A DNA stretch of 44,047 nucleotides from a virus, in UHGV virus genome UHGV-0196292; one strand, written 5' to 3'. Position 1 is the stretch's first letter; each line of letters begins with the position of its first letter. The notes beneath the pieces are model-generated. The model ran no database searches, was not told where the DNA came from, and was given only the letters and a program-made list of their open reading frames with translations. Shown piece by piece: positions 6-34,416 of this stretch. The translations under genes and the position numbers were made by a program.

Positions 6-34
6 TTGCAGACACCAACATAATAGGGTACTAT
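6..34 (+). promoter_or_regulatory. sigma70-like promoter TTGCAG-N17-TACTAT with AATAG-N4-CTATT palindrome over the -10
   Basis: Hexamers at 6-11 and 29-34 with 17-nt spacer; 18-mer ATAATAGGGTACTATTCA (20-37) is identical to 34377-34394. Confidence 0.5.
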
Positions 35-69
35 TCATTACATCGAAACGAGAGATGAGGAATTTAAAG

Positions 70-282
70 ATGAAAGAGTTAATTATCGCGGTATTGACGA
101 CATTGGCAGTTTCACTGGTAATTGCCGCGGGTGTACGTAGCTTAGATAAACATGGGTGCGAGAACTACGGAGATATCACAGGCAGAGAGGTAATGTATAG
201 TTACGCAACTTGTTATGTAAAAACTGATAGAGGTTTTATCCCTCGTGAAGAACTTAATTTTAGAGCAGCGACACATAAATAA
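70..282 (+). CDS. small membrane-anchored or secreted protein (accessory/moron gene)
   Basis: ORF-track ORF 55-282; internal ATG at 70 has better GAGGA spacing; N-terminal hydrophobic helix (LIIAVLTTLAVSLVIAAG), Cys-containing C-terminal part; opposite strand to flanking operons. Confidence 0.45.
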   Translation: MKELIIAVLTTLAVSLVIAAGVRSLDKHGCENYGDITGREVMYSYATCYVKTDRGFIPREELNFRAATHK

Positions 283-287
283 AACTA

Positions 288-307
288 AGGCCCCGTTTGG
301 GGCCTTC
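288..307. terminator. bidirectional rho-independent terminator hairpin
   Basis: AAGGCCCC-gttt-GGGGCCTT stem-loop with T-rich flank on the minus strand, between convergent genes. Confidence 0.6.
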
Positions 308-309
308 TA

Positions 310-771
310 TCATTCTGGCTTAGTAACCTTCGCCGCTTTGCTTACCGCCTCTACGCCGCCGGCATCGGTAACTTTAACGAAGTATTCGCCAACCGCGTTA
401 ACCGTCAGAGACAAAGCCTCTTCTGGTGCGTTTACAACTTCCTTCCCGTCTTTGTACCAGGTCAGCGCATATGGAGCTTTACCGGCCTTAACTTCGACAG
501 TGATAGTTGCGCTGCCGTCTGCCAGTTCAGCGTCTTTCGGTTGCACAGAGAAATACACGTCTCCAGCGTCCGCCAGATACGGAATTTCGTAAAGCATACC
601 CGCCGCGGGGAGCGCAATACCGGTTTTATCCGCAAACGGCATATCGTCTACTGAGGTACCCAGTACACTTTCGTCCTCAATAAACGCCACGTTCTCGCCA
701 GAGCCAGACACGCGAGCATACTGGACTACGCGACGCGACGGTACATCAGTTACTTTGAAAAAGCCCATCAT
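310..771 (-). CDS. Ig-like domain structural protein (capsid decoration or fibre candidate)
   Basis: Beta-rich sequence with Ig/Big-like signature (ATITVEVKAGKAPYALTWYKDGKEV); directly downstream of head morphogenesis gene. Confidence 0.45.
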   Translation of the reverse strand: MMGFFKVTDVPSRRVVQYARVSGSGENVAFIEDESVLGTSVDDMPFADKTGIALPAAGMLYEIPYLADAGDVYFSVQPKDAELADGSATITVEVKAGKAPYALTWYKDGKEVVNAPEEALSLTVNAVGEYFVKVTDAGGVEAVSKAAKVTKPE

Positions 772-1847
772 TATTCCCCTTTCAGATAATCAGCAACACG
801 TTTATCGAGTTCCGCCATCTGCTTAAGCGTGAGCGGATTCCCGAAACCATCTACAGATATTACGCGAAACTCTTCCGGTGATATACCGCTGTTGCGGAAA
901 ATCTTACCGCGGGTCGGCCCGAGTGCTTCATCCTGAAACCATGCCGGTTGTTGTTTAAGGAACTCGTAATAGGTGGTGTCTGCGCTTACCTGAGTACCAC
1001 CTTCTGCACCCTTAGCTGCGCGTTTCGCGCCTTTATCGAGGAAGTCGAACTCGGAACTGATTACCGGGGCCGTGCACGACCGACAATTCGGATGGGCGGG
1101 GGGCATCGGCCCCTTACCAATTTCCCACGTCATTCCGTCTCTGGCCCTGCAAATCGTACTGGTACGGCTGTCAAGCGTTGACACCCATTCGTACTTCTCG
1201 ATGATGTCGTCGTTCTGGCGGTACGTCTCGTTGCGGGCTTCATTGGACACGTGAGACAGCGCGGTGCGGATTACTGTAGCGGCGTTGCGTTCAGAGATGT
1301 CCGCCAGTCCGCCAGCGCCTACGACATTCTTAACAATCTGCCGTGTGGTTTGGCCTTGAACAAAACCCATCTTAACACCGGTTACAAGGCGCGCTACCTC
1401 CGTTTCCCCCCAACCTGACATCAGCTTGGTGAAGTCGACTGGTTTGTCGCTTAACGATAAGGGTTGAAACTCGGCAGCGGCCCAAACCTGTTCGGCGGTA
1501 GGCGTAACAAATTCCGCGTCTACGTTGGCCGTCAGTGTCTTTACGTTCCACTCAGCCTCGTACGCTGCCAGTTCTTTGAGGTCTTCTGTCAGCTTTGTCT
1601 GCCAGTCGTCCGTAAGCCCAGCCAGTGCTTCTTCCAGGTCGCGTAACAGTTTATTCAGTCGCGCTGTGCTGCGACCGTCGTCACCGAACAACAGCACCTG
1701 CCGTTTGATTTCGTCCCGCATTTCCTGAAGGAACGGTGCGAGTTCTTTCACTTCACCGGATGCGGTGCGTTGCAGCCATATCTGATGGCTGATTAGGGAT
1801 GTAAGTAAGCTCATAGATAAACCCTGTGGCGCTAAAGTTAATAGCAT
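771..1847 (-). CDS. head morphogenesis protein, MuF / SPP1 gp7-like
   Basis: Conserved MuF-type core (WVSTLDSRTSTICRARDGMTWEI...PPAHPNCRSC); position after portal gene; ~85 aa C-terminal extension. Confidence 0.7.
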   Translation of the reverse strand: MLLTLAPQGLSMSLLTSLISHQIWLQRTASGEVKELAPFLQEMRDEIKRQVLLFGDDGRSTARLNKLLRDLEEALAGLTDDWQTKLTEDLKELAAYEAEWNVKTLTANVDAEFVTPTAEQVWAAAEFQPLSLSDKPVDFTKLMSGWGETEVARLVTGVKMGFVQGQTTRQIVKNVVGAGGLADISERNAATVIRTALSHVSNEARNETYRQNDDIIEKYEWVSTLDSRTSTICRARDGMTWEIGKGPMPPAHPNCRSCTAPVISSEFDFLDKGAKRAAKGAEGGTQVSADTTYYEFLKQQPAWFQDEALGPTRGKIFRNSGISPEEFRVISVDGFGNPLTLKQMAELDKRVADYLKGE

Positions 1848-1883
1848 ACTATAAGAAAGCCCCTTTCGGGGCTATATGCGGAC

Positions 1884-3365
1884 TTACTGCTGAGCGGCGT
1901 CTTGTTGCTGCGCCGACTGCGGAATCTCTCCTGCCACCTGAGCAACAGCACCTAACGGTAGGGGTGCGTCCTCAATCGCAGTCTTAATCTCCTCGTCAGT
2001 CCAGTCAGTAACCCCCGCCTTACGCAATGCCGCGTAGTAAGCAGTAGCGGGTAGCAGGCCGGCGTTAATATCCGCCATCCACTGCGCTCGTTCGGGCGCG
2101 GTCATCGGTTGCAGGAAGAACTCCATATTCAGCTTGAACTCAATCTCTGTGCCTTCACGCAGCCCCAGCATCGCCGCTACCCAGCGCAATGCATCTGTAT
2201 AAGCCATGCTTACATTACGTGCGATTGTCGCCATAACAGACGTGTCGGCACCGCGTTGCAGGCGTGCCGATTCAGCGGTGATTTGCTGGGTAGGGGTGAT
2301 AAGCTGTGCGCCAATCTGGATGGCCTGATTCTCTTTATCCAGCATGTTCTGCTTGGCGAGGTTGTTCTCCCCCGCCTGAACCAAGAACGCATTGCCACCG
2401 TAGCCGATGTTGTGACCTGAACGCGACCCCATGCGCACGCCGTGGGGGTTGGCTTCTTTCCACTGTTCCATGCTCATGTTCTCGCCGGGAGCAATGAACA
2501 GAGTGGGCTGGCCTACAACGAAACTGGACTCCTCATTGTCTGCGCTGTTGCGGAAATGTCCGATATTAAGCTCAGCCAACGGCAGCAAAGGCGCATCGTC
2601 AATCGTAGCGTCGTTGTTGCTCGCCCCGATAAACGTGAACGGGATTTTGCCGCGCAACTGTTCGCCGAGTTCCGGGAATATCTCGATTACTTCATCCTGT
2701 GCGCCACCTTCGGCGTCGAAGCGGTAAATACGCTGGCGGTAGCGGCCATCAATCAAATCGAGAACGCGGTATTGTTCACCGAACTTTGTTTCGAACTCTG
2801 CGCCAGGTTCTGAGTATTCCCACACCTCACGCAGCACGACCATAGTCACACGGTTCACTGAACCTACGCGTGTCAGTCGCCAGTTGATGATGTTCTCTGC
2901 GGTATAGAATGCGATGACCGGGTTTAATAACCCTGCGTTCTGTTCGGCTGCCGTTGCAGCAGCAGTCTCCGGGGCGTCAACCAGCAACCCGCCACGGCCC
3001 ACCGAGTCAATCTCCATCAGCGTGTCCTGCGCGTGCTGCCACAGCCCGACACCGGAACCGTCTGCATTGCGTAACAGGTACTCCAGTTCAGGCGGGATAA
3101 TCTGCTCGGGGTCTTTGCGCATGACACTGCCGACCATCCCGGCCAGAGTACGTTTAGTGAAGTTGTAGCAAATAGCGCCGTTCTCATATTCTTCCTGGCG
3201 CCGGGCTGCGTAGGTCTCGTCCGGCTCGTTCTTACCAACGTTGCGCAGATAGCGAATAAGGTCGCCTTCCAGTGCGTGGCGTACTTTCTGCCATTTATTG
3301 AAGTGATGCAGCCATTCCCGGTGTTTTGTCTTAACACCCTGATTCTGACCGTTCATAGTTAACAT
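1884..3365 (-). CDS. portal protein
   Basis: 493 aa ORF between terminase large subunit and MuF-like gene (canonical order), acidic C-terminus. Confidence 0.7.
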   Translation of the reverse strand: MLTMNGQNQGVKTKHREWLHHFNKWQKVRHALEGDLIRYLRNVGKNEPDETYAARRQEEYENGAICYNFTKRTLAGMVGSVMRKDPEQIIPPELEYLLRNADGSGVGLWQHAQDTLMEIDSVGRGGLLVDAPETAAATAAEQNAGLLNPVIAFYTAENIINWRLTRVGSVNRVTMVVLREVWEYSEPGAEFETKFGEQYRVLDLIDGRYRQRIYRFDAEGGAQDEVIEIFPELGEQLRGKIPFTFIGASNNDATIDDAPLLPLAELNIGHFRNSADNEESSFVVGQPTLFIAPGENMSMEQWKEANPHGVRMGSRSGHNIGYGGNAFLVQAGENNLAKQNMLDKENQAIQIGAQLITPTQQITAESARLQRGADTSVMATIARNVSMAYTDALRWVAAMLGLREGTEIEFKLNMEFFLQPMTAPERAQWMADINAGLLPATAYYAALRKAGVTDWTDEEIKTAIEDAPLPLGAVAQVAGEIPQSAQQQDAAQQ

Positions 3366-3377
3366 TGAATAATCCTC

Positions 3378-4649
3378 TTAAAGTGCGAAAGTCACCGGGA
3401 CGTTAATAACTGGTTTGCGAATCGGCATTTCATATGCAATTGGGTATGTGGTCCCATCATTCTGGTGGTCCACGCCGCCAGATTTATCCGGTTCGCCATT
3501 CTTATCGTAGGCTTGCTGCTCCAGGCATCGCGCCGTAACTGGGCAAGCCCGTTCATTAATCATGACCATACCAGATTCAAGCGCCTTATTCATCGCAGAT
3601 ACGCGGTCTTTAACCGGTGGGTTTGTCGATTTAGCGCGTACTTCGAACCCGGCCTGCTGTAGCTGGGCGATGTCTGAGGTACTGGCGTTGTTGCTTTTAC
3701 GGTTTTTGCCGCTGGCGTCCGGGTACATAACGATATAGTGGCCCTTACTTTTCCATCGCTCGGTTATAGCCCGCACTACATCTGGTGTATCGAACATATC
3801 AACCAACTCGGCAACAGCATGCCATACCTTACCACGTTGCACGTAAACTGTGCTCGCCATGTGACCTACGTTAAAGTCCTGTCCGATATACAGAGTCTCG
3901 CCAGGCTTGATTGTTTCGCGGCTGCTGTTTTTCCTGCGGTCGTAGGCGTAGTAGACCGTTCCAGCCGTGAGGTTTACGAACTTACCGTCAATGTAGGCAT
4001 CAATCAATTGACTGGGGTATGTGTCACGCAATGACTGCACATAATCTTCTGGCAGGAACGGGTTCGACAGGGTGGATGCCTGGATCATCTCATAGCCAGG
4101 ATTCTTGTTAACAACCCAGCGGTCATGTACGAAACGGAATCCTTCCGGCGTGGTGAACACGGAAACGGTATTGGCAGGTTTCGGTGTAATAGGTTTATAT
4201 GTCCGTGGTAACTGGCGGTTACGGGCAATGACTTTGTTCCACGCGTGCTCGGCGTGTTTCATGGTCAGGGTGTCCAACTCGTCGATTTTTGCACGAAACG
4301 ATTCGTAGCCAACGATTCGCGCTGGATTATCAAGTGTACGCAGAACAAAATCCCCAAATTGCCTTGAAGACGTATAGATTATGTTGTCAGACTTGTTGTA
4401 TTTGTACCGGACACCCCAGTCCATCAGCTTCTCTTCCATACGAGGTGCAAGGATAAGCCGTACCAGGTCGTAAGTAGGCTCGTACATGGCGATGACAGAA
4501 TCGCTGCCGCCTTCCATGCTGTCCAGTAGCGCGGAGTTACACATAACTTCGGATTTACCCGTACCGAAGCCAGCTACGAATGCCGGGAACTTGCAATGCA
4601 TACCCAGAAAATCGCCTTGAGGTTCCGTTGCCGTGATATTAACGTTCAC
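3378..4649 (-). CDS. terminase large subunit
   Basis: N-terminal P-loop (VAGFGTGKS), C-terminal acidic nuclease-type residues (IGQDFN, MYPDASG); 423 aa. Confidence 0.85.
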   Translation of the reverse strand: MNVNITATEPQGDFLGMHCKFPAFVAGFGTGKSEVMCNSALLDSMEGGSDSVIAMYEPTYDLVRLILAPRMEEKLMDWGVRYKYNKSDNIIYTSSRQFGDFVLRTLDNPARIVGYESFRAKIDELDTLTMKHAEHAWNKVIARNRQLPRTYKPITPKPANTVSVFTTPEGFRFVHDRWVVNKNPGYEMIQASTLSNPFLPEDYVQSLRDTYPSQLIDAYIDGKFVNLTAGTVYYAYDRRKNSSRETIKPGETLYIGQDFNVGHMASTVYVQRGKVWHAVAELVDMFDTPDVVRAITERWKSKGHYIVMYPDASGKNRKSNNASTSDIAQLQQAGFEVRAKSTNPPVKDRVSAMNKALESGMVMINERACPVTARCLEQQAYDKNGEPDKSGGVDHQNDGTTYPIAYEMPIRKPVINVPVTFAL

Positions 4650-5187
4650 CGGACACCACCTTAATTGTTACTTCACTGATTGGCTCGTCGCGTACTTCTT
4701 CGGTGGCAACAGTTTTATTCAGTCCCAGCTTCGCAGCGGCAAACGTAGCTGAGATACCCGCCGCCCCTGTCTCGGTGAAATATGCCTCTTCCAGTGCCTG
4801 TGCTGTCTCCCAAGCTTCGGCAAATGCAGGAATCTCACGCAGCCACAGTTTGATAATCGGGATAGTGACGCCAATATGCAGGGCGAAGCGGGCCAGTGAC
4901 GGGGGCTTATCCTGAATCAGTGGGCGTTCATCCCCCTTAGACGTAGGCACAAGTTCCCACGACGTGCGGTCGAAGAAACGAATCAATTCGTCGCAATAGT
5001 CCGGGTCCCACAACGCGGCGGAATTACGGGATGATTGATAAAGGCTCTGTTTACCGCGCGGCCGTCTACGGCGACGGTTTGCGCTAACAGCTTCTTCATG
5101 TGCAGCTTGCACCACCTCAGGCGATGGCTGCTTAAGTTTCAGCTTCATAGAATCCCCTTGCATATGCGTCTGACCATCAGAGCGCAC
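4639..5187 (-). CDS. terminase small subunit (putative)
   Basis: Basic, Arg-rich N-terminal region immediately upstream of and overlapping the TerL start; true start probably an internal Met. Confidence 0.45.
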   Translation of the reverse strand: MRSDGQTHMQGDSMKLKLKQPSPEVVQAAHEEAVSANRRRRRPRGKQSLYQSSRNSAALWDPDYCDELIRFFDRTSWELVPTSKGDERPLIQDKPPSLARFALHIGVTIPIIKLWLREIPAFAEAWETAQALEEAYFTETGAAGISATFAAAKLGLNKTVATEEVRDEPISEVTIKVVSGER

Positions 5188-5249
5188 CAGACGCGCCCTA
5201 CGCGTCTAAAGGGATTATATAAGGGGATTGGGCGGGATGTACAGAAAAG

Positions 5250-5272
5250 CCCTCCGTAGAGGGCTTATATCA
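5250..5272 (-). terminator. rho-independent terminator
   Basis: AAAGCCCTC-cgta-GAGGGCTT hairpin followed by T-run on the minus strand; a TATAAT-containing late promoter candidate lies just downstream (5188-5240). Confidence 0.5.
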
Positions 5273-5367
5273 GTTATATAGGCCGTGTCGCGGTGCTCTT
5301 TTACCATCGCCACCGTAGTGGTCGTTAGCTACAGCGATAGCCCATGCGTTATGGATGATTAGCAGTC

Positions 5368-5550
5368 TCATTTGAAAAACCACAACAGGATGCCTGCCAC
5401 TCCCGATACCCCCATGCCTAAAAACATAGGCCACCACAGATGGCGGGGAAGACTGTTAAACAAAGTCGGTTGTTTTATCAGCACAACGAGAAAGGCCAGC
5501 CAAAACACCAGGTCGCCAGCGGCATTGGCAGCCTTCAAAATATCAATCAT
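5368..5550 (-). CDS. small two-transmembrane-helix protein
   Basis: 60 aa with two hydrophobic segments (LVFWLAFLVVLI; MFLGMGVSGVAGILLWFF). Confidence 0.4.
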   Translation of the reverse strand: MIDILKAANAAGDLVFWLAFLVVLIKQPTLFNSLPRHLWWPMFLGMGVSGVAGILLWFFK

Positions 5551-5783
5551 CCCCCACGCTCCTCTTTAGCAATACGTTGCTCTGTTTTAGTCACACCCCG
5601 GCGCGTGAATAACACCGGGCTTGTCTTAACGTGCGTCATCAGACGGTTGTTGTAAATTACATGGCGCTCGCAGTTCACGTCTTTGCTGTACTTGGCAATC
5701 GTCATTTCGTTGATGCCGGTTTGTCGGCATGTCTCCGCCATCGTGCCGAATTCTTTAATCAGGTTCGGAATGCTGGTAATCAT
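5547..5783 (-). CDS. putative HTH DNA-binding protein
   Basis: HTH-like stretch (ETCRQTGINEMTIAKY); start overlaps previous stop. Confidence 0.35.
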   Translation of the reverse strand: MITSIPNLIKEFGTMAETCRQTGINEMTIAKYSKDVNCERHVIYNNRLMTHVKTSPVLFTRRGVTKTEQRIAKEERGG

Positions 5784-5977
5784 TTACCCTCCGGGTTTAC
5801 GTCTAAATCGTAACGTTCCCGCAATTCGGCGTACTTATCCATGTAATCAAGTAACATCCGATACGCGTCTAACTGGAACTCTTCGTTCAGTGTCCTGCCA
5901 AGCCAGAACTCTGGATTACCTTTAGAAGCCAGACGGTCTATCTGTTGGTGCAACGTCTCTTTACATACTCTACTCAT
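5780..5977 (-). CDS. hypothetical protein
   Basis: 65 aa ORF in operon context with overlapping stop/start. Confidence 0.35.
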   Translation of the reverse strand: MSRVCKETLHQQIDRLASKGNPEFWLGRTLNEEFQLDAYRMLLDYMDKYAELRERYDLDVNPEGK

Positions 5978-6146
5978 TTCTTAAACCCTCTCGTTGTCCA
6001 CATCGCATTTGGGTATTTATTATCGCGGTCCTGCACTACGGCGATCATGTTTCCACGTTGCACCAGGCAGAAGTGCCGCTGTTGCTCGCCGTTGTAGCGA
6101 CGCCAGATTGCTTCTTCGATTGCTGCGTTAATGCCACTGAACATAA

Positions 6147-6383
6147 TCAATCCTCAATACTTAATAGCACGTACCCCGGTAGGTAAGCCCCTACGTCAGC
6201 AACATGAATAACGCGGCGGTAAACGATACGGCCTGTGTATTCACCGTTTTCGTATTCTCTCAGGCACAGAGTGTCGTCTTCCTTAAAGTCGCGGTCGTTT
6301 AATCGAAGTTCCGCCAGCTTAATGCCCGCCAGAACAGGCGCAAAATGCTCAGGTAATATCTTTAGCTCATGGAACATAATCAC
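6147..6383 (-). CDS. ASCH/PUA-like domain protein
   Basis: GxKxxExR-type signature (AGIKLAELR) typical of ASCH-fold proteins. Confidence 0.45.
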   Translation of the reverse strand: MIMFHELKILPEHFAPVLAGIKLAELRLNDRDFKEDDTLCLREYENGEYTGRIVYRRVIHVADVGAYLPGYVLLSIED

Positions 6384-6646
6384 CCCACTATCTCATCACC
6401 GAGCCACGCCGTTTCTCGTATATCGTCGACCACACAAGCGGCGTGCTCCCGGCTAATTGCAAAAATGTAGAAGCTGAACTTCTTCCCGTCGGCGTCGATG
6501 TGGTTAACCGAGTAGGGTTTCCACAGGATGCCATCGATAATCACCGGTTTAGGCGACTCCATACGCTTCGCCGCACTTAATGCACGTGGCACGATGTAGC
6601 CCGCCAACCACATGTAGGTAGTAGTCATGCGCACAAGGCTTTTCAC
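6380..6646 (-). CDS. hypothetical protein
   Basis: 88 aa ORF; probable start at an internal Met because of overlap with upstream ORF. Confidence 0.3.
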   Translation of the reverse strand: MKSLVRMTTTYMWLAGYIVPRALSAAKRMESPKPVIIDGILWKPYSVNHIDADGKKFSFYIFAISREHAACVVDDIRETAWLGDEIVG

Positions 6647-6797
6647 CCTCTTTCAACTTATCAAGCAACAACTTAAACGCCTCCAGTTGAAACTCACCGT
6701 TAATTGTCAGTCGCCAACCTGGCGTCTGTTTCTCAGACTCAAGCACCAGAATACGGCGCTCAAGTGATGCAATTGTGATTTTAGGCATTGGTATCAC
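6549..6797 (-). CDS. hypothetical protein with C-terminal CxxC pair
   Basis: 82 aa ORF; C..H..CIKCG motif. Confidence 0.35.
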   Translation of the reverse strand: MIPMPKITIASLERRILVLESEKQTPGWRLTINGEFQLEAFKLLLDKLKEGEKPCAHDYYLHVVGGLHRATCIKCGEAYGVA

Positions 6798-6966
6798 CTT
6801 TGTTCAGGTTGAAGCGGTTAATCAGTTCACGGCGTGTCTCGTAAAGCGACTCGACCATTTGCTCTGCTACCGCGATTTTAGTATTCAGGACGTGCATCAC
6901 GTGGCTGATGTCTACGCCGCCGTTAACGGCCTCCACCATCATCTTTTCGTATTCACGGTCAGTCAT
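6781..6966 (-). CDS. hypothetical protein
   Basis: 61 aa ORF, operon context. Confidence 0.3.
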   Translation of the reverse strand: MTDREYEKMMVEAVNGGVDISHVMHVLNTKIAVAEQMVESLYETRRELINRFNLNKGDTNA

Positions 6967-7127
6967 TCTTTACGCTCTCCCCACATGCGATTGAGATACT
7001 TGTTCTTGTCCGGCCCCGGGAAACTGTTGCGTTTCATCAGTTCCTCGCGTGTCGGGAACGGGGTGTGGCTAACTTTACGGCCTACTCGTAATGGCCGGCT
7101 TGCTGGGCCTTGTTCGCTCATTTCTTA

Positions 7128-7331
7128 TCACCTGTAATATGTTGCTTCTAATTCTTCCAGTGCCTGAGCACTATACCCGTGGGCGCATTCGCAATCCCAG
7201 CAGTCCTCAGAGTAGTTATAGACTTTAAGTTGACCGTGCTCCCATCTAAGAGTTGCTGAATAGGGGAAATCCCCTATAAACCACACCGCTACAAATTGGC
7301 CCTCCGACGGCATCTCATAGCTAACAATCAT
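7128..7331 (-). CDS. hypothetical protein
   Basis: 67 aa ORF with CWDCEC motif. Confidence 0.3.
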   Translation of the reverse strand: MIVSYEMPSEGQFVAVWFIGDFPYSATLRWEHGQLKVYNYSEDCWDCECAHGYSAQALEELEATYYR

Positions 7332-7473
7332 TTCTTCTCCTCTGCATAAGCTGCTTTAAGTGCCTTCATCGCTGCGGACCAGAACGCGTCAGCAGGAATA
7401 TTGCTGCTCAGGTTATAAACGGCTATACGTGCCATCAGTTGCGCATCTTCGAATGCTTCGATATCTGTGATTT

Positions 7474-7671
7474 TCATTCGTATCCCTCAAACTTACGTAA
7501 ATCGCCTTTAGTGATATATTTACGGCGGGCCAATATCGTGTCCACGTCATAATCCATTAGTGCGCCTGTTTCACATCCATCCGGCGTCATACTTGGCCCG
7601 TAAACAGAAAGACCCATCTCGTTAAGGTACTCCATAAACTGCTCTACCGTTTTCTTCTGGTAACGCTTCAT
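7474..7671 (-). CDS. hypothetical protein
   Basis: 65 aa ORF at head of minus-strand operon. Confidence 0.3.
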   Translation of the reverse strand: MKRYQKKTVEQFMEYLNEMGLSVYGPSMTPDGCETGALMDYDVDTILARRKYITKGDLRKFEGYE

Positions 7672-7704
7672 CTTCTCTACTCCGTTCTCGTTGTCGATGG
7701 AGTA

Positions 7705-7733
7705 AATATAGTAGGGTCGATGGTAATAGTCAA
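7705..7733 (-). promoter_or_regulatory. sigma70-like promoter (TTGACT-N17-TATATT; TACTAT-class -10)
   Basis: Minus-strand hexamers at 7728-7733 and 7705-7710 with 17-nt spacer, just downstream of a terminator. Confidence 0.45.
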
Positions 7734-10612: not shown

Positions 10613-10644
10613 CTTCTGTCTCTCCTCTCGTTTGTGTAAATGAA

Positions 10645-10673
10645 TAGTAGCCTATTCTATCTTAGTGTGCAAG
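10645..10673 (-). promoter_or_regulatory. sigma70-like promoter TTGCAC-N17-TACTAT with GAATAG-N4-CTATTC palindrome
   Basis: Minus-strand hexamers at 10668-10673 and 10645-10650; perfect inverted repeat 10642-10657. Confidence 0.5.
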
Positions 10674-12241: not shown

Positions 12242-12270
12242 ATAGTATCCTATTATGCTGGGGCGTGCAA
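12242..12270 (-). promoter_or_regulatory. sigma70-like promoter TTGCAC-N17-TACTAT with GAATAG-N4-CTATT palindrome
   Basis: Minus-strand hexamers at 12265-12270 and 12242-12247. Confidence 0.5.
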
Positions 12271-27217: not shown

Positions 27218-27229
27218 ATAGAGTCCTCT

Positions 27230-29812
27230 TTAACTAAAACCGTTGCTGAATCCGCCGGAGAAACCGCTACCGAAAGGCGCGACGCCGTCGTATTTATAGA
27301 AATCTGCTTCGTAGTTAATCCCGGTAATCTTAACCGTTCTGTCGTCTCCGGGGTCAACTGTAGAAACAAGAATCATCTGAGCATTATGCCTTGCTTCGTT
27401 GCCGAATGAAAACTCAGTTTTTAGTGCGCTATTCCCTGTGTATATCGCCTCCTGCGGCGCAGAGAGCATAACCACTTCACGGTCGTGGCTTCCAGGCACA
27501 ACGGCAACACTTTGAACTCCACCGTCTCGCTTCTTAAGAATAAGTGAGTGGTCGTCTCCGGGGGTAAATGTAATAGGTTGTGATAGCGTCAGCGCAAGCC
27601 CATTAACGGCAACAACATAGCCATCTTGCGGGGCCATACGCGAACCTTTTACCACACTTACCGCACGCCCAGGCATTGCAAAAATCCCTTCTTCTGTCGC
27701 TGTGAATGATACCGTTACCTTCTTCAACAGGTGTTTCTGGTAGCGGCGGTACGCAGCCCAGTACGCCTGTTGATAATTACGGATACCTTTAGAGTCGTAC
27801 GTTTCAGTATTAACGCCACCTTCTGCGGGGATGCTGATTGTCTCTTTGACGTTTGTATTCGGGTCGATGTACGAAAACTTGAGACTATCGTATACCTGGG
27901 CGTCATTAAACGTGCGCGTCCATTTCTCAGTAGCTGGGGTCTTGCTGCGATGGGTAAACACCATCTCAGGGCCGATGCGAGGGCGCTCGAAGTCCAGAAG
28001 AATATCGGCGCCTCTGCGGTATGGGGTGCAGAAAATTGCTTCCGCTATCGTAGTTACTATGTCCTGCATAGTGGTTTTATAGTCATCAAACGTATAGCAA
28101 AACTCTCCTGCGGATGTGCTGCCGAAATAGCTTTCAATTTCGTTCTGCACGGCCAGCAGTTTATCCATATTTGCCGTTGTCAGGTTCAGTGCGCCAACTT
28201 CCGGGTCTCTGGCGAGGCGAATGAGGGACTGGGTGGCCTTCGTGTTCGGCGTGCGAACTGTGTCGAAAACTCCGTTACCGAGGTACTTAAATACCATCTC
28301 CGTCACCACCATGCGCAACTGAGGTTGTTTAACCTCCGCCGCTCGTGGCGTCTGTTTACGCGCGGAATGCACTGTCGTTCGGTTACCGTAGTGCGGGGTT
28401 CGGTCGACTAATTGCCCGTAAAGATTTATATAGGCCACTTCATCGACTACTGTACCCTCAAAATCAAGGTCCAGATTGGTGACACGACGCGCTCTCACTC
28501 TTACACGTGATACGGACGGCAGGTCCGCATATATAGTAACCCCAGTATAATCGGCAGACCTTCCGGAAACTGTCCCTTGTTTAGTGTAAACAGGGCCGTA
28601 AGCGCTCCCTGTTTCATCTAAAAGCTGATACTGCAGCTCTACGGTCACTGCAGCCCTGGATTTATTGTCCCCATTGTCTTTGTACATACCATTCGTAGCG
28701 CCAATGTTGGCCACGATTCTTTCTACTGCAATTCTGTTTATAGCAACCCAATCGGTGAGGCTGGCCGAGGTGGTATCTAGCGGGCCTATAGTTGACTCTG
28801 GTTCATTAGATTGTATTTTATAGCCGCCCACAGGCAACTTCTGCCATTGAGATAGTGCCGGTGTGGCATCTACCCTAATCTCCGTCTCGCTTACAGAAAT
28901 GCATGTGTAATTCCCATCAAGAATGGCGTCCGTTGCTGGGTTTGGGCTGCCGGATACCCAGCAATGTATACCGATGAATTTAACGGCCATACCCACTTTG
29001 ATAAAGTCACTAAACCCGGCGTCCCCAGTTGGGTCGGTTACTGTGCCAGTTGTTCCCTCCAGTTTCGCAATAGATAGTTCTCTCGTTACAGGCGACGCAA
29101 GGTCGTTAGGTGCTTTCAGCACCACACCGTCCACTTCATTGGACGCAACAGTGATGTAAAGCCCTTGTGTAATGGGGCTTCCGACCATTAATTGTGGGGC
29201 GTTTGTGTTGTTCGGAGAGGTGTACGGAGCGTACACCGCCACAGACGTGCCGGTTATATCCCGGACCTTAGTATCGCCGTCGGTGATGTCTTCTGCTTTA
29301 ACGTCAAGATACCCGCGCCCCGCATCATAATAACCGTACTCGATGATGCGACCAGCGTCATCGAAGACTTTATATGTAGTCATAAGGTTATTAGGTATTG
29401 TCTGCACCCTGCCGCAGATGTCATAAGTTCGCTCGTAAGGGCGAGCCTTGTTATTTCGGTCTGTCAGACTGTTGTTCGGTGAGTCCGCTTGCTGGTTAGC
29501 AAGATTGTTAGACGCGCCCTTCGTTGACGGTGTGAGTAATTTAGCTAGCGGTTTAAGGATGATGCTGAACACTTTCATCACACCCTTGATAGCACCGCCA
29601 CCAGCACCTTCCAGGATGTGGAAAACCGCATCCTGTTTTAACGCGTCGAAATTTTCTGTTACGTCGTTATCCTCCCCTATCTCTTCGAGGAAAACGCGAA
29701 ACGGCACACCGTCAGGGATATGGTTTACGACGAAATTAAGCGGCGAGTCGTTATGCCGTTTTTGTGTGAATGTCCCGTCTTCGTTACGGGTGTAGTGGAT
29801 GACTATCGCCAA
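27230..29812 (-). CDS. tail tip / central fibre protein (lambda J-like)
   Basis: 860 aa ORF downstream of K/L/M-like genes; Gly-rich C-terminus. Confidence 0.55.
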   Translation of the reverse strand: MAIVIHYTRNEDGTFTQKRHNDSPLNFVVNHIPDGVPFRVFLEEIGEDNDVTENFDALKQDAVFHILEGAGGGAIKGVMKVFSIILKPLAKLLTPSTKGASNNLANQQADSPNNSLTDRNNKARPYERTYDICGRVQTIPNNLMTTYKVFDDAGRIIEYGYYDAGRGYLDVKAEDITDGDTKVRDITGTSVAVYAPYTSPNNTNAPQLMVGSPITQGLYITVASNEVDGVVLKAPNDLASPVTRELSIAKLEGTTGTVTDPTGDAGFSDFIKVGMAVKFIGIHCWVSGSPNPATDAILDGNYTCISVSETEIRVDATPALSQWQKLPVGGYKIQSNEPESTIGPLDTTSASLTDWVAINRIAVERIVANIGATNGMYKDNGDNKSRAAVTVELQYQLLDETGSAYGPVYTKQGTVSGRSADYTGVTIYADLPSVSRVRVRARRVTNLDLDFEGTVVDEVAYINLYGQLVDRTPHYGNRTTVHSARKQTPRAAEVKQPQLRMVVTEMVFKYLGNGVFDTVRTPNTKATQSLIRLARDPEVGALNLTTANMDKLLAVQNEIESYFGSTSAGEFCYTFDDYKTTMQDIVTTIAEAIFCTPYRRGADILLDFERPRIGPEMVFTHRSKTPATEKWTRTFNDAQVYDSLKFSYIDPNTNVKETISIPAEGGVNTETYDSKGIRNYQQAYWAAYRRYQKHLLKKVTVSFTATEEGIFAMPGRAVSVVKGSRMAPQDGYVVAVNGLALTLSQPITFTPGDDHSLILKKRDGGVQSVAVVPGSHDREVVMLSAPQEAIYTGNSALKTEFSFGNEARHNAQMILVSTVDPGDDRTVKITGINYEADFYKYDGVAPFGSGFSGGFSNGFS

Positions 29813-30321
29813 AATTCAATCTCCGGGTATGTGTCGCGCAAATCGTCAAGACGGTCAAGGCGCACTTGTCTGGACGCTAACTCGCAGTGGCTTACCATCC
29901 CATCATAATACACGCCCGCGTGCCACACTACACGCCCTCTGTGATAAGTGCCCAGCAACACGGCGTCGTAATTCTGCGGACTGGCAGCGCGTTCCAGGCC
30001 TTTCGGGTCAGAGTGCCCTGCGTCAAACGCCGCGTCTATAGCCGTCGGGGAGGTTACGTCGAAAGTCGGGGTAGATAGGCCAACATCGCCGCGCACCCTG
30101 CGCACGTGATGCCAACAATTGTAACGACGGAAGTCATAAGGGGTGCCCGTATAATCGGTGATACTCATGACAAGAGTACCCCACGCAACAGCGGTATTTC
30201 TTCCGGTGTCATCAGGATTCCGGTCTGCCGTTGGTTGAGCATAGGCGTTCCGGTCTCTGCGGTGAACACGCCTTTCTCTTGTGTCAACGTCTGCAACTCG
30301 TATACCACTGGGCCGTCGCAC
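29803..30321 (-). CDS. tail assembly protein, NlpC/P60-like (lambda K-like)
   Basis: Cys/His-containing motif (YNCWHHV) and position in tail-tip cluster; start probably internal. Confidence 0.5.
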   Translation of the reverse strand: MRRPSGIRVADVDTRERRVHRRDRNAYAQPTADRNPDDTGRNTAVAWGTLVMSITDYTGTPYDFRRYNCWHHVRRVRGDVGLSTPTFDVTSPTAIDAAFDAGHSDPKGLERAASPQNYDAVLLGTYHRGRVVWHAGVYYDGMVSHCELASRQVRLDRLDDLRDTYPEIEFWR

Positions 30322-30695
30322 GGGTACGACAGGTCTGTGCTTACGTAGCGCCGGAATATGAATTTAGGTAACTCTGTATTGCTATACGGGATGCGGTCCA
30401 TCTCTTCATCGAGAATGTTAAGAACATCCGGCAGCGAGAATGATGCTGTTTGGTCCATGTCATTATTGTTTGCGGCATTCTTAGCGTCCATAGGGGTAGC
30501 TTCGAACGTAACGGTTTCGCCAGTCTCAAGCGTAGCGGTAAGATCAGACGTACCGCGCACAAGCAACCACCGCTTTGAAAGAAGCGGGTGTGTTATTTCA
30601 AGAGTAATGTAATCCAGTTCGCCGTCTGGGTTTGATGCCAGTTTACGACGATAGGCGGCTTCTACTGATTCCTGGCTCATTGCATTGGGTCCCAA
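30165..30695 (-). CDS. minor tail protein (lambda L-like, putative)
   Basis: Position between M-like and K-like ORFs. Confidence 0.4.
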   Translation of the reverse strand: MGPNAMSQESVEAAYRRKLASNPDGELDYITLEITHPLLSKRWLLVRGTSDLTATLETGETVTFEATPMDAKNAANNNDMDQTASFSLPDVLNILDEEMDRIPYSNTELPKFIFRRYVSTDLSYPCDGPVVYELQTLTQEKGVFTAETGTPMLNQRQTGILMTPEEIPLLRGVLLS

Positions 30696-31171
30696 ATACG
30701 TGGAAACGTTGATTGCGCGGTTCCGTATGCTTTAAGGAATCCGCCTAAGCAATCCCCATAACAGCCGAACAAATCCGGTAGATTCTTAGTAAGGCATGTA
30801 TCTTCCTGAATAGCTGTTCTCTCTGCCGTGGCGGTGAACGTGATCACCCAGTTCTTGCCGTCGTCGGTGCTGTCACTAATAGTCGATGTGATGAGTACCT
30901 GGTGGTCCTCGATGCCCATACCTGTATCATGCGGCATGATAAACGAGGACGCCCCGCCGTCGATGTTGTTCAGGAAGCTATAAAACGCCTGGCGCCCGAG
31001 AGAAGACACGACAAGCGTAACGCTAATCGGCACTGGCTCAAAGTATGTGTCTCGCCCCTGGCGAGGTAAGCCGCCCTGAACCTCGGTGCGCCAGATATTA
31101 CTCCCCCTGGTCTGAGAGTACCCCTTCGACACTATTGGTCGAAGGGACATAGGGAATCTCAAATCGCTCAT
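30677..31171 (-). CDS. minor tail protein (lambda M-like / distal tail, putative)
   Basis: Immediately downstream of tape measure gene. Confidence 0.4.
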   Translation of the reverse strand: MSDLRFPMSLRPIVSKGYSQTRGSNIWRTEVQGGLPRQGRDTYFEPVPISVTLVVSSLGRQAFYSFLNNIDGGASSFIMPHDTGMGIEDHQVLITSTISDSTDDGKNWVITFTATAERTAIQEDTCLTKNLPDLFGCYGDCLGGFLKAYGTAQSTFPRIWDPMQ

Positions 31172-31174
31172 TAA

Positions 31175-33499
31175 TTAATACCCCGGCTGACCGCGGGTAG
31201 CGCGGCGAGCTTTAGAAATCGGTGAGTTGTTATCCTGTAACTGCGACGCTACTGTTTCACTGATTATAATACGTAAACGCCCTTCGTCATCACGTTCTGT
31301 TACGGCAGAGTCCACACGGCCGGTGGTATTGTTGACGATTGTCACGCTGTCGCCACCTGACGGGCTGCCGTTTTGGCCCATAATTTCTTTCATCTGCTGC
31401 GCGGTGCGCACACGCGATGCGCCAGCGGGCATGATAACCTCCGGCTTACCGCGTTCAGCGATGGTAGACATCTGGCCTGCCGATAGCTGCCCACCCTGTT
31501 CACGCGCCGAGCGGATTTTGGCGATATTAGCCAGCCCCGCGGCAACGGCAGTAGCCGCGGCAACCGGTGCCAGGAATGGGCCGACGACCGGTATCGCCGC
31601 AGTAGACTTATATGCTTCGATAGCTGACGTGTATGTTGCGATAGTGGCCTGGGCAATAGCAAACGCTTTATAAGCGGCGGACGCCTCGCCAAATGCTGTT
31701 TTAGCATTAGATGCCATGTCACCAAAGGCGTCCCCGGTGGCTTTGGCACGCTTCATTGAATACTGCTCATCCAGGGCTAGGAGCGCCATCTGGTACTGCT
31801 CAGCGTTAATTATGCCGTCGGCCATGTATTTTGAGATGATATTCGCTTTTTGAGACTGTTGTATTTCCAACAACTCAAGCTCAGCGGCATTCTGGCCCAT
31901 AATCTGGGCCATGAAGTCGTCTCCTTTCTGCTGCTTTTCCTGCTGCTCTTTTCTTTTCTTATCCAGTTCTTCCTGTCTGGCCTGCTCGGCTGTGAGCATA
32001 ATTTGAGTTTTGGCGTTTTCGTACTGCTGCTGGCTTATTGTTCCGGCGCGGTTGAACTCTTCAAGTTTCGCCAGTTTCTGCTCTTCTGCCGCTGTGATAC
32101 GTGAAATTTCGTCTCCGGTTGTTCGGTCGACAGTAGCGAGGAAATCTTCCGCCGCTTTTTTCTGTCGTTCAGCTGCGGTTTCTTCGCGTTTGGCTTGTGC
32201 CGCCAGACGTTTCTCGTTCGATTTAGCCTCTCGGTCTGCCTTCGCTTTTTCGGTCGCGTCGATGCGAGCGATGTCTTGCCGTGCTTCCGTGTCACGGGCC
32301 GCGTTATACGCGGCTATCTGTTCTTTGGTGACCGCTTCACGTTTAGCGAACGCCTGTTTATCAAGTTCAGCTTGCGCCCGGATGCGCTCACGGTCGCTTA
32401 ATATGGCGATTTGCTGATTCTTGACGATAGCTTCGTTCTGTTCCTGGAATCTCTGCGTTGTTGAGTTGACGTTACGACCAAGATTCTTTTGGGCCTCCGC
32501 CGCCGCGTTTGCCGACTTCTCCGCGTTCTCCAGTGCCGTGGCATTCTTGTTGGCGTTGTCCGTCAGGCGGATAAGTTCCGGGTTCAACTGTTTTGTGTTA
32601 CCGAGCCAGTCGGTAAACACATCGGCGATGCGACGGGCATTCTCAGCGGTTGGTTCTTTGTTAAACGCACTCTGTGCCGCTATCATCTCCAGCGCCTGGT
32701 CACGGTTAACCCCGAACTTACTGCTAAGCTCCGCGATATTCTGCGCCAGCATGTTGACGCCTACGATATTACCCTCGTAAGTGCCTCCGAGTTTTTCTAA
32801 CGTGTCGCCTACATCAGCACCCTTAGATACCAGCGCGTCGTACTGGCTAATAGCTGATGCAGTGGAGGCTTTCCATGTTTCCCACGATTCGGCATCTTCA
32901 CGAACAGCTTTAGCGGTTTGCTGCGCGATAAGGTCTGCGTTAGCCTTAGCCAGAGCAAGCTGAGTCTCCGCCGCTTCTCTGCTGATTTGGGTTAGCTGAA
33001 TAAGGCCGTCTGTCAGTTCTAGGGAGCCAGATGCCGTTTGCTGGAAGGTGTCTTTTAACTGTTTCTGGGCTGCTTCCAGGTCTTTTGAACTCCCCTCAGC
33101 CTCCGTTAGCGATTTGTACAGGACACCGCCAACAGCCGACGCTAGCGCGATTACAGCCCCAAGCACCGCACCACCAGGGCCGAAGGCACCTGCAAGCTGT
33201 GAACCTTGTTGCCCGATTGCTACGAATGCAGACGTGCCGGACTGCAATTGGACAACCATGTCCTGTACCTGGAAGCCAACCTGCCCGGCGGCGTTACGGA
33301 ACTTAGCGAAACCGTCAGAGGCCGCTTTAGAGGTAGCTGTGTTAACTTTATTAACATCTGGGGTCAGCTTGTTTACTGCGGTATCCGCACGGTCTGCAGA
33401 CGACGCCATAGCGTCAAGCTGTTTGGCGGCTACGTCAGCACCTTCTGTTTTTACTCTGGCAATTAGGGAAGCCGTATCAGCCATCTTCTCTGCCCTCAA
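31175..33499 (-). CDS. tail tape measure protein
   Basis: 774 aa, Ala/Gln/Glu-rich coiled coil with Gly-rich hydrophobic segments; follows chaperone pair. Confidence 0.85.
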   Translation of the reverse strand: MRAEKMADTASLIARVKTEGADVAAKQLDAMASSADRADTAVNKLTPDVNKVNTATSKAASDGFAKFRNAAGQVGFQVQDMVVQLQSGTSAFVAIGQQGSQLAGAFGPGGAVLGAVIALASAVGGVLYKSLTEAEGSSKDLEAAQKQLKDTFQQTASGSLELTDGLIQLTQISREAAETQLALAKANADLIAQQTAKAVREDAESWETWKASTASAISQYDALVSKGADVGDTLEKLGGTYEGNIVGVNMLAQNIAELSSKFGVNRDQALEMIAAQSAFNKEPTAENARRIADVFTDWLGNTKQLNPELIRLTDNANKNATALENAEKSANAAAEAQKNLGRNVNSTTQRFQEQNEAIVKNQQIAILSDRERIRAQAELDKQAFAKREAVTKEQIAAYNAARDTEARQDIARIDATEKAKADREAKSNEKRLAAQAKREETAAERQKKAAEDFLATVDRTTGDEISRITAAEEQKLAKLEEFNRAGTISQQQYENAKTQIMLTAEQARQEELDKKRKEQQEKQQKGDDFMAQIMGQNAAELELLEIQQSQKANIISKYMADGIINAEQYQMALLALDEQYSMKRAKATGDAFGDMASNAKTAFGEASAAYKAFAIAQATIATYTSAIEAYKSTAAIPVVGPFLAPVAAATAVAAGLANIAKIRSAREQGGQLSAGQMSTIAERGKPEVIMPAGASRVRTAQQMKEIMGQNGSPSGGDSVTIVNNTTGRVDSAVTERDDEGRLRIIISETVASQLQDNNSPISKARRATRGQPGY

Positions 33500-33749
33500 A
33501 TATTCCGTCTAAGCCCATGATAACCTCGGCTTCGAACAAACTTATGCCGTAACCGGCGACATCACGAAACGCTACCAAATCTTGCCATTTGAGCGCATCG
33601 CGCGGGATTATAACGATAGTATCATCTGTTTCGCGCTGTAGGAATTTAATGGCACGGTATTTCTCGAACACGTCGATAAGAGAAACGGGGCATTCCGGCC
33701 CCGTCGTTTCTTTCATCTGCGGTTCTTTAATCACGCCCATTGCAATCAA
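33477..33749 (-). CDS. tail assembly chaperone T-segment (expressed as G-T fusion by -1 frameshift)
   Basis: In -1 frame relative to upstream G-like ORF; frame open upstream to 33863; track start is TTG. Confidence 0.55.
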   Translation of the reverse strand: MIAMGVIKEPQMKETTGPECPVSLIDVFEKYRAIKFLQRETDDTIVIIPRDALKWQDLVAFRDVAGYGISLFEAEVIMGLDGIFEGREDG

Positions 33750-33838
33750 AGCCGCCTGGTGGCCCGCCGCGATGTCGTCGAATTGCTTACGTTTGTGACG
33801 GTCAACAAAACACCATTGCGCAAATTCATACAGCGCTT

Positions 33839-34255
33839 TTACTTTTCCGAGAGTTTCTCGCGGCTATCGGTGTGGTGCTTAACTACGGCTTCTGCCAACC
33901 CACTATACTGGTCAAACAGGTTAGCCAGCGCCTCTTTGCTGAACGGTTCGTCGAATGACCAACCGGTGACGATTTCCACGGCGAGCTGCTTGTTCAGGTC
34001 CATCACCCGCCAGCCCTTCTCATCGTTATAGCGCGCCCAGTTATTCAGCGCCTCGCACTCTTTATCTAATGGCGCAAGTTCTTCCGTAAGGCGTCGAATT
34101 GCCGTTGTGTAGGCGCGGCCCGCACGAACACCAGCGTCACAATCGGGGCCGATAACCTGCAACCATTCACCGGAATCTTTACCACTCGGCAGAAGGATAG
34201 GCATTTTAGTGCCTACAGCATGGCGGTCAGCAAAATAAAAATCAGAAAGTTTCAT
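33839..34255 (-). CDS. tail assembly chaperone (lambda G-like)
   Basis: 138 aa acidic ORF immediately upstream of T-segment and tape measure. Confidence 0.55.
   Translation of the reverse strand: MKLSDFYFADRHAVGTKMPILLPSGKDSGEWLQVIGPDCDAGVRAGRAYTTAIRRLTEELAPLDKECEALNNWARYNDEKGWRVMDLNKQLAVEIVTGWSFDEPFSKEALANLFDQYSGLAEAVVKHHTDSREKLSEK
33842..33848 (-). other. putative -1 programmed frameshift slippery site (mRNA GGAAAAG)
   Basis: GAA-AAG codons just before the G-like stop; lambda G/GT uses GGGAAAG. Confidence 0.4.
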
Positions 34256-34362
34256 TCTTTAATCCTTTGGTTAAGAGGTTACCGGTTAAGATTAACGCGC
34301 CAGACGGGAACCACCCGCTTTTCGTGTGCGACACTAGGCGCAAACTTATTCTAGCACACTAC

Positions 34363-34391
34363 TTGCACACCCCAATATAATAGGGTACTAT
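34363..34391 (+). promoter_or_regulatory. sigma70-like promoter TTGCAC-N17-TACTAT with AATAG-N4-CTATT palindrome
   Basis: Hexamers at 34363-34368 and 34386-34391; 18-mer identical to 20-37. Confidence 0.55.
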
Positions 34392-34416
34392 TCACCTGTA
34401 ACTTACTGAGGAAATA

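Follow-up and report, generated by a model that had tools for sequence, protein, structure and literature searches.

Lambdoid phages reportedly carry morons, promoter-gene-terminator units set between conserved genes, which Juhala et al. and Hendrix et al. are said to have described in 2000. Classical morons are expressed from a repressed prophage. The PeSL cassettes of T4-type phages combine a repeated, conserved sigma-70-like promoter with a stem-loop terminator around non-essential ORFans (PMC2839356, PMC4122927). A repeated promoter motif is also on record for Kagunavirus phages: in fBC-Eco01, seven sites with the consensus tgAATAGTa-ccTATTat-T, of which two are identical, were picked by PHIRE and attributed to the promoters of "the phage-encoded RNA polymerase" (PMC9825357), and seven PHIRE promoters were given for Golestan (PMC7203180). 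Here we report on the same motif in the virus genome UHGV-0196292, a stretch of 44,047 nucleotides that we call the window throughout, and in which an 18-bp sequence with this motif occurs in two identical copies.

We propose that a promoter-operator module reused genome-wide in Kagunavirus and Jerseyvirus phages has this 18-mer as its core, and that its palindrome is bound by a dimeric phage helix-turn-helix (HTH) protein, a reading to which we assign a probability of about 0.6. The two exact copies are paralogues of a general early/middle promoter at two gene-exchange hot spots. Because the same module heads many gene blocks, the 18-mer is not dedicated to the two small exported proteins encoded behind these copies.

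Results

The 18-mer belongs to a family of sites with a palindromic core

A sequence-only reading of the window had described an identical 18-bp promoter core ahead of two plus-strand genes for small proteins with hydrophobic N-termini, both opposed to the surrounding structural operons. These points are borne out. The sequence ATAATAGGGTACTATTCA occurs exactly at 20-37 (+) and 34377-34394 (+); the start codon at 70 lies 32 nucleotides (nt) past the first copy, and the two in-frame start codons at 34417 and 34420 lie 22 and 25 nt past the second; hydrophobic N-termini can be read directly from both translations; and both genes oppose flanking minus-strand structural genes. The similarity of the two copies reaches upstream to a common -35 hexamer (TTGCAG at 6-11, TTGCAC at 34363-34368), and both sites have sigma-70 anatomy, TTGCA[G/C]-N17-TACTAT followed by a Shine-Dalgarno sequence and ATG, in agreement with the promoter claim.

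A search of the window allowing up to three mismatches found further copies with one or two mismatches at 10641, 12239, 15885 and 15930, all on the minus strand, making six copies where 0.03 would be expected from shuffled sequence. Beyond these, weaker and more degenerate matches occur at 18905 (-), 22456 (+) and 10956 (-). The two exact copies are part of a family of at least nine putative promoter-associated sites.

The core of the 18-mer is a 14-bp palindrome, AATAG-N4-CTATT, of which the window holds seven exact and six one-mismatch instances against 0.78 expected. We counted all 5+N+5 palindromes de novo, without prior assumptions, and this one ranked top in the window, in NTEC3, M01, K1ind1, SZH-1 and EC3-1, and in AG11, skrot and buks, Jerseyviruses of Salmonella or E. 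coli; it was the most over-represented palindrome in nine of the 10 Guernseyvirinae genomes compared. The more distant Guernseyvirinae member vB_STM-ZS (L126), a Salmonella phage, has no such palindrome and no comparable repeat. In IMG/VR, all contigs that bear the exact 18-mer are of Guernseyvirinae size, about 34-45 kb, or are pieces of such contigs, with one to three copies per contig; the exact scan is specific, whereas a degenerate scan for the 14 bases returned mostly chance single matches.

The palindrome occupies fixed registers over predicted sigma-70 promoters

The palindrome is placed in fixed registers relative to predicted sigma-70-type hexamers, and we distinguish three classes of site. 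In class A, TTGCAC (TTGCAG at the first site) is followed by 10 nt and the palindrome, and the -10 hexamer TACTAT, 17 bp past the -35, lies inside the right arm. This arrangement is seen at 6-34 (+), 34363-34391 (+), 10672..10644 (-) and 12270..12242 (-), with a poor--35 version at 15885-15902 (-). The promoter at the first exact copy, P1 (6-37, +), has its palindrome AATAGGGTACTATT at 22-35 and its -10 at 29-34; P6 (34363-34394, +), at the second, has them at 34379-34392 and 34386-34391. P2 (10641-10672, -; TTGCAC 10672..10667, palindrome 10643-10656) heads a minus-strand block that starts at 10612 with the gene for a DUF551 protein and continues to the lysis genes, and P3 (12239-12270, -; TTGCAC 12270..12265, palindrome 12241-12254) heads a block of small genes starting at 12207. 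The poor--35 version, P4, is class A-like: it carries a one-mismatch palindrome, AATATGGTACTATT, and the -10 TACTAT, 29 nt upstream of a gene for a Cro-like protein.

In class B, TTGACA or TTGACG is followed by 4-5 nt and then by the palindrome, which fills the spacer (N17/18), and TATAGT or TATATT begins at the last T of the palindrome. P5 (15921-15950, +; TTGACA-N18-TATAGT, spacer palindrome 15932-15945) stands before the replication block of the plus strand, which opens at 16147 with a "13.88 kDa" protein and an exonuclease. A second site (18897-18925, +; TTGACA-N17-TATATT, one-mismatch palindrome 18907-18920) precedes the genes for the single-stranded DNA-binding protein and DNA polymerase, and a third (22448-22476, +; TTGACG-N17-TATAGT, palindrome 22458-22471) precedes methyltransferase and helicase genes. 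Leaders of classes A and B are related (AAACGAGAGGAG...) and run into the start codon.

In class C, a one-mismatch palindrome overlaps the -35 TTGACT. The site at 7705-7738 (-), with TTGACT-N17-TATATT at 7733..7705 (10/12 consensus matches) and ACTAGTTGACTATT over the -35, stands after a terminator and ahead of the block of small, terminase, portal and head genes. A candidate class C promoter at 43958-44000 (-) has TTGACT (43986..43981) inside AATAGTTGACTTTT, then N17 and a weak -10, TAAGCT (3/6); it lies upstream of the spanin/scaffold/capsid block and overlaps a perfect 16-bp palindrome, AACTATTCGAATAGTT (43985-44000). In this 16-bp palindrome, which is kept in the examined Kagunavirus genomes and in Jerseyvirus skrot and lies 91 bp upstream of P1, the operator half-sites stand in the opposite, tail-to-tail arrangement.

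In both class A and class B the two hexamers stand 16-18 bp apart, and the -10 has A as its second and T as its sixth base. Agreement with the sigma-70 consensus is 7-8/12 for class A (6-34, 34363-34391) and 10-11/12 for class B, and in a consensus scan the class C site and all three of class B ranked with the best promoters found in the window. The depositors of AG11 had annotated RpoD promoters at the orthologues of two class B sites (18897 and 22448) and of the class C site. Since the sites lie upstream of the predicted transcription starts, the palindrome would act as a DNA element and not as an RNA element.

Conserved arms and a variable centre point to a dimeric binding protein

We compared 28 class A and 27 class B instances from nine genomes. 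Class A geometry is identical in all 28. We had also considered an upstream TATAAT or CATAAT as the class A -10 and rejected it: no -35 is kept 16-18 bp from it, while TTGCAC-17 bp-TACTAT is. Over all 55 instances both palindrome arms carry nearly the full 2.0 bits, with dips at two positions of the class B right arm (1.5 and 1.8). At the centre, information falls to 0.4-0.6 bits over the four bases in class B, and the class A reading is NNTA, where TA is the start of the -10. Conserved arms around a drifting centre are characteristic of a sequence-specific site bound by a dimer, and the pattern points to such a site laid over the promoters.

An unlikely but serious alternative is that these are plain sigma-70 promoters without a dedicated regulator, the palindrome arising either incidentally, from A+T-rich, -10-like hexamers on the two strands, or through common descent or gene conversion among promoter copies. 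The arms do resemble -10 hexamers (TACTAT, TATTAT), but the left arm of class B lies inside the spacer, where sigma-70 makes no base-specific reading, and is nevertheless invariant in 27/27 instances over two genera while neighbouring and central bases change. The reverse strand at 34377 reads GTTACA-N17-TATATT, as expected of hexamers on both strands, yet relatives with other cargo do not keep this reverse -35. Recent copying would fit the 32-33 bp, spacer ACCCCAAT included, that class A copies have in common; between Kagunavirus promoters and their Jerseyvirus orthologues, however, the arms are kept and the whole centre is replaced (for example TTAG to TACT, or CGAA to AACA). Neither of the two candidate HTH proteins described below covaries cleanly with the site, again as plain promoters would have it, whereas an orphan exact palindrome, AATAGTAACCTATT (10958-10971), adjoining a terminator at 10923-10944, has no -35 or other hexamers in register. 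The reverse hexamers at 34377 were also considered as part of a possible bidirectional promoter feeding the tail operon, against which the same lack of a kept -35 would count.

A Cro-like protein is the leading candidate regulator

A minus-strand gene at 15641-15856 encodes a 71-residue XRE/Cro-type HTH protein (Pfam HTH_3, 6.6e-13) whose best PDB match is phage 434 Cro (3.6e-7), and depositors of relatives often label its orthologue repressor or Cro. This gene is separated from the replication block by a divergent region of 290 bp, in which two palindromes (15887-15900 and 15932-15945) have their centres 45 bp apart. One or two palindromes are present in the corresponding region of all nine genomes, the Jerseyviruses having one shared copy. 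The arrangement is that of a classical autoregulated, Cro-like repressor, as judged from gene order and predicted sites, and because of this autoregulation-type layout we rank the XRE protein first among the putative binders. The dimeric protein that would bind the palindrome is most likely this 434-Cro-like protein.

The second candidate is a 56-residue HTH_17 (excisionase/MerR-like) protein encoded at 12706-12876 (+), whose own promoter has no palindrome. It is 86-88% identical between Kagunavirus and Jerseyvirus, with an identical helix. Phage vB_STM-ZS, which lacks the palindrome, also lacks HTH_17; its XRE protein is 38% identical and the gene heads a helicase operon. A third DNA-binding candidate is possible, the 376-residue product of 34812-35942. 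Residues 1-45 of this metallophosphoesterase/exonuclease give weak HTH-type matches (Pfam GerE, 0.011; phrog_836 'late transcriptional activator', 8.6e-4), and one relative has its orthologue annotated as a winged-HTH protein.

Proposed mechanism and what weighs against it

We propose that host RNA polymerase would read the class A, B and C promoters, and that a dimeric phage HTH protein would bind the palindrome and thereby set when, or restrict how far, they are used. For this binder the 71-residue protein, whose own promoter region bears two of the sites, would be the best candidate. At class A and B sites, the likeliest mode would be occlusion of the -10 or spacer, that is, repression.

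Several observations weigh against this proposal. We infer both the promoter use and the operator function of all sites from sequence. The class A hexamers are weak by consensus (3-4/6 plus 4/6) and were missed by the consensus scan, and class A promoters might need activation rather than repression. Their conservation could stem partly from recent copying or gene conversion, and not from selection. Within Kagunavirus the XRE protein keeps 93-99% identity, against about 51% in Jerseyvirus, where its recognition helix is changed and the core palindrome is the same; HTH_17 of EC3-1 (71% identity) likewise has a changed helix and the palindrome is kept. Comparing Jerseyvirus, EC3-1 and vB_STM-ZS, we found no pattern of covariation between recognition helix and site that decides between the two proteins.

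Expression timing belongs on the same side of the balance. The only temporal transcriptome of a Kagunavirus, that of vB_Eco_K1B4, covers eight samples over 120 min and sorts genes into time classes (PMC12645636); we matched its genes to the window via the gene table of that study. Of the four genes classed as "early", one is HTH_17; the XRE gene is "middle", and the latest-peaking class includes the Imm gene of the P6 slot (see below), the methyltransferases and DNA polymerase (PMC12645636). Such timing, from a coarse and unsynchronised sampling, does not look like early shut-off and speaks against simple repression.

An extension of the promoter-operator reading, which we advance tentatively and hold to be rather doubtful, is a genome-wide temporal switch in which one phage-encoded dimeric regulator, acting on one 14-bp palindrome in three registers, would repress early and middle promoters and boost late ones. 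If this were true, any gene acquired behind the portable promoter would join the temporal programme automatically.

The module and its terminator bracket exchangeable genes

The P1 unit consists of its own promoter (6-37), one non-core gene (70-282, +) and its own terminator. The gene encodes a 70-residue protein (phrog_26710) with an N-terminal transmembrane segment, MKELIIAVLTTLAVSLVIAAG, that would serve as anchor or signal, and a C-terminal part of about 50 residues with two cysteines. A bidirectional intrinsic terminator, AAGGCCCCGTTTGGGGCCTT (287-306), closes the unit, and has sister copies at 25198-25218 and 36983-37002. The three are near-identical and of the form AAGGCCCC-N4/5-GGGGCCTT; terminators of this form stand at every convergence of plus- and minus-strand blocks, and the same family closes cassettes in relatives.

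The 70-residue cargo is rare. EC3-1 has a 96%-identical protein in the same slot, and other close homologues are limited to a few contigs of Kagunavirus size; more remote homologues, 32-57% identical along part of the protein, come from Dhillonvirus-like and Acinetobacter T4-like phages. Two metagenomic contigs, L128 and L129, carry a 76%-identical homologue at a different locus, between the Mu-F-like head-morphogenesis and portal genes, with TTTGCAGACACCAATATAATAGGGTACTATTCA and the same leader upstream and AAGGCCCCATAAGGGGCCTT downstream. When the window is aligned with L128, homology starts just upstream of the -35 and stops just past the terminator, and the flanks are unrelated. The sequence-only reading had spoken of a promoter cassette and had suggested looking for the 18-mer ahead of homologues elsewhere; the homologue of L128 is preceded by the same 18-mer, and the whole promoter-gene-terminator unit recurs there.

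Exchange is seen at both loci. At the portal/head-morphogenesis locus, M01 has the same promoter and leader with another gene from the ATG onward. The P1 slot of the window holds a gene for a 67-residue acidic protein in NTEC3, a 33-residue lipoprotein-like peptide plus another gene in SZH-1, a 179-residue HNH-like protein in Jerseyvirus skrot and a 76-residue protein in L129, and it is empty in K1ind1. Between its own portal and head-morphogenesis genes, the window has a degenerate palindrome, AATAGCATACTATA (1840-1873), abutting a terminator. In relatives this position carries opposite-strand cargo, namely a 93-residue protein (M01), the homologue of the 70-residue protein (L128 and L129) or an amidase (Jerseyviruses), and in the window it looks like an emptied cassette slot. 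By comparison among these genomes, the module and the AAGGCCCC...GGGGCCTT terminator together bracket interchangeable accessory genes.

The P6 slot and the range of cargo genes

P6 heads an operon of four genes (34420-36978, +) and not one small gene. Its first gene (34420-34746, +; phrog_14165), for which an in-frame ATG is also present at 34417, encodes a 108-residue protein; relatives have only the ATG corresponding to 34420. The N-terminus, MRKLVLALGFMSFAAFG followed by SPCE, is a predicted Sec-type signal peptide. This first gene is followed by genes for a metallophosphoesterase/DNA-repair exonuclease of 376 residues (34812-35942, +), a polynucleotide-kinase-type HAD phosphatase (35939-36424, +) and a P-loop NTPase or deoxynucleoside monophosphate kinase-like protein (36424-36978, +), and the operon is closed by the bidirectional terminator AAGGCCCCGGAAGGGGCCTT (36983-37002).

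Among nine Kagunavirus and Jerseyvirus genomes, the window and eight relatives, the first P6 slot holds a secreted protein of 108-109 residues in 5/9, an Imm_superinfect protein in 4/9 and both in 0/9. The Imm protein of the slot (60-63 residues; PF14373, 2e-13; for example K1ind1 gp22) has the same position and promoter as the 108-residue gene. In vB_STM-ZS a signal-peptide protein, gp37 (L126, 26274-26636), fills the same slot between the tail assembly chaperone and tail tube genes, with no detectable homology to the 108-residue protein. The family of the latter was found in Guernseyvirinae only (99 phage records, 22 clusters at 90% identity), and a hidden Markov model search of 1.84 billion representative proteins gave 11 matches. 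Its signal peptide is conserved and its two cysteines are invariant. The AlphaFold2 model is all-helical (predicted local distance difference test score 77), and a Foldseek search of it against the PDB returned nothing below E=1. By these searches the 108-residue protein belongs to an orphan family.

The sequence-only reading had placed both small proteins in the class that includes superinfection-exclusion and receptor-masking factors. Neither matches a superinfection-exclusion or defence family, and neither has a match in Pfam, NCBIfam, PADLOC or PHROG functions. For the 108-residue protein, its slot position alone makes a superinfection-exclusion-type role a reasonable guess.

To survey the cargo we read the first downstream open reading frame (ORF) behind 66 exact 18-mer sites in the window, in the genomes of relatives and in contigs. 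These ORFs fall into about 20 families, five of which have a hydrophobic N-terminus (Imm, the 108-residue and 70-residue proteins, the 33-residue peptide and a 97-residue protein); these five account for 37/66 sites, mostly in the P6 slot. Fifteen families are not envelope-targeted, among them a 242-residue methyltransferase and an HNH endonuclease.

These counts bear on the idea that a promoter cassette was duplicated specifically for envelope-targeted accessory proteins of the superinfection-exclusion or receptor-masking kind, which we consider improbable. Both window cargo proteins do have hydrophobic N-termini, and 37 of the 66 exact 18-mers precede such a protein, but 15 of about 20 cargo families are of another kind, and the module also heads cytoplasmic early-gene blocks and the regulator gene. 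The slot after 34377 does hold Imm or a secreted protein in all nine genomes and a signal-peptide protein in the distant vB_STM-ZS; in the window, however, this copy drives an operon with DNA-repair and nucleotide enzymes, the two small proteins lack the family matches named above, Imm included, and the predicted fold of the 108-residue one has no PDB relative. What stands of the earlier idea is that the two exact copies serve accessory loci that run against structural operons; a cassette reserved for envelope-targeted proteins does not fit the early blocks, the Cro-like gene and the roughly 20 cargo families. The promoter is not specific to envelope proteins, and one slot consistently holds one.

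The promoters are probably read by host RNA polymerase

In the fBC-Eco01 paper the PHIRE calls are taken to mark promoters of a phage RNA polymerase (PMC9825357), and the seven PHIRE promoters of Golestan (PMC7203180) might likewise be so taken. This reading is almost certainly wrong and was rejected, since no RNA polymerase gene is present among the window ORFs of at least 300 residues (all otherwise assigned bar 41360-43015) or annotated in relatives, the sites bear sigma-70 hexamers at canonical spacing, and PHIRE detects repeated motifs only. We strongly infer that the host sigma-70 holoenzyme reads the promoters, because the genome has no RNA polymerase gene and orthologues of the sites carry RpoD annotations in AG11.

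Genome layout and neighbouring features

The window is about 90% identical over most of its length to the Escherichia phages NTEC3, K1H and SZH-1 and to other Kagunavirus (Guernseyvirinae) phages, and its gene order is that of annotated relatives. Both ends belong to one continuous intergenic region, in which 91 bp separate the site at 43978 from the site at 22 across the junction, and the orthologous site pair of NTEC3 has the same 91-bp spacing. The window is therefore the whole, circularly permuted genome of a virulent Kagunavirus siphophage.

Packaging, head, lysis and small early genes occupy 310-12216 on the minus strand, replication genes 12706-25059 on the plus strand (interrupted by the one minus-strand gene at 15641-15856), tail genes 25232-34255 on the minus strand, the four-gene block 34420-36978 on the plus strand, and tail-tube, head-tail, capsid, scaffold and spanin genes 37007-43733 on the minus strand. 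Across the junction, the gene at 70-282 is flanked by minus-strand genes for a Hoc-like protein (310-771) and the Rz spanin (43347-43733), and the P6 block by those for the tail assembly chaperone (33839-34255) and tail tube (37007-38179), also on the minus strand. ORFs of at least 300 residues were assigned to head morphogenesis, portal, terminase, helicase-primase, exonuclease, DNA polymerase, helicase, tailspike, tail and tape-measure functions, one antisense frame excepted. This frame of 551 residues (41360-43015, +) is antisense to the capsid and scaffold genes, is annotated in no relative examined, and is probably a non-coding frame that codon bias keeps open.

The first gene of the P3 unit (12025-12207, -) keeps its N-terminus, MFKKGQLV, and its C-terminus, LIGNNFKFKGxK, while the roughly 40 residues in between differ almost fully between phages. 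First ORFs of P3 type with this pattern occur in L001, L003, L004, L035, L039, L069, L070 and others, and the gene looks like one for a diversifying small early protein. Between P3 and the HTH_17 gene, a gap of 450 bp (12257-12705) has no convincing ORF and contains G+C-rich hairpins such as gggtgggcgttagcccaccc. Rfam and tRNA scans gave no matches in the window, this gap included; it could be an origin or an uncharacterised RNA.

Discussion

The motif was already present in Kagunavirus genome papers, where it was misattributed, and both the regulatory logic proposed here and the cassette behaviour have close precedents. What we establish, by genome comparison, is the full family of predicted sites, the palindromic core with its fixed registers, and the role of the module as a boundary of exchangeable cassettes. 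Phages of Kagunavirus and Jerseyvirus are isolated widely for use in therapy and food safety. Reading the "phage promoter" of the genome papers as a host-polymerase promoter with an embedded predicted operator corrects a recurring annotation error, names two candidate regulators and gives a simple rule for locating transcription units in several hundred sequenced genomes. The promoter-terminator pair marks gene-exchange slots, and the slot that holds Imm or a secreted protein is a sensible first target in the search for new exclusion functions.

T4 Imm and the PF14373 family are small envelope proteins, as the window proteins would be, and in many relatives a member of the family takes the slot of the 108-residue gene behind the same promoter. 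They differ in having no sequence similarity to either window protein, and the 108-residue protein is predicted to be secreted and helical, whereas Imm is a two-transmembrane-segment protein of the inner membrane.

The Cro/CI operators of phage 434 are likewise palindromes of 14 bp whose arms are conserved and whose centre varies, with several copies overlapping sigma-70 elements, and the 434 Cro gene is a small XRE-type HTH gene beside a divergent, site-bearing promoter region; 434 Cro also has 71 residues. The arm AATAG, however, is unrelated to ACAA of the 434 operators. Unlike the lambdoid phages with their Cro/CI systems, the window phage is virulent, without integrase or CI-type repressor, and its sites lie in three registers over at least nine promoters instead of being clustered at OR/OL, with binding here predicted from the DNA alone. 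A promoter of the related phage MB78 is said, in a report from the 1990s, to lack a -35 and to interact with a phage factor, which may possibly be relevant here.

The unit at 6-306 is like a lambdoid moron in being self-contained, in lying between two opposite-strand, head-related genes, and in being present, absent or different in relatives; it differs in belonging to a virulent phage and in using the general promoter type of that phage. Compared with the PeSL cassettes (Arbiol et al. 2010, PMC2839356; Comeau et al. 2014, PMC4122927), those of the window are a handful in the genome of about 44 kb of a siphovirus, and their promoter, which has an embedded palindromic operator, and their terminator stand at opposite ends of the cargo and are not fused. 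The two systems are alike in that, between close relatives, swaps, insertions and deletions of genes break at the motifs.

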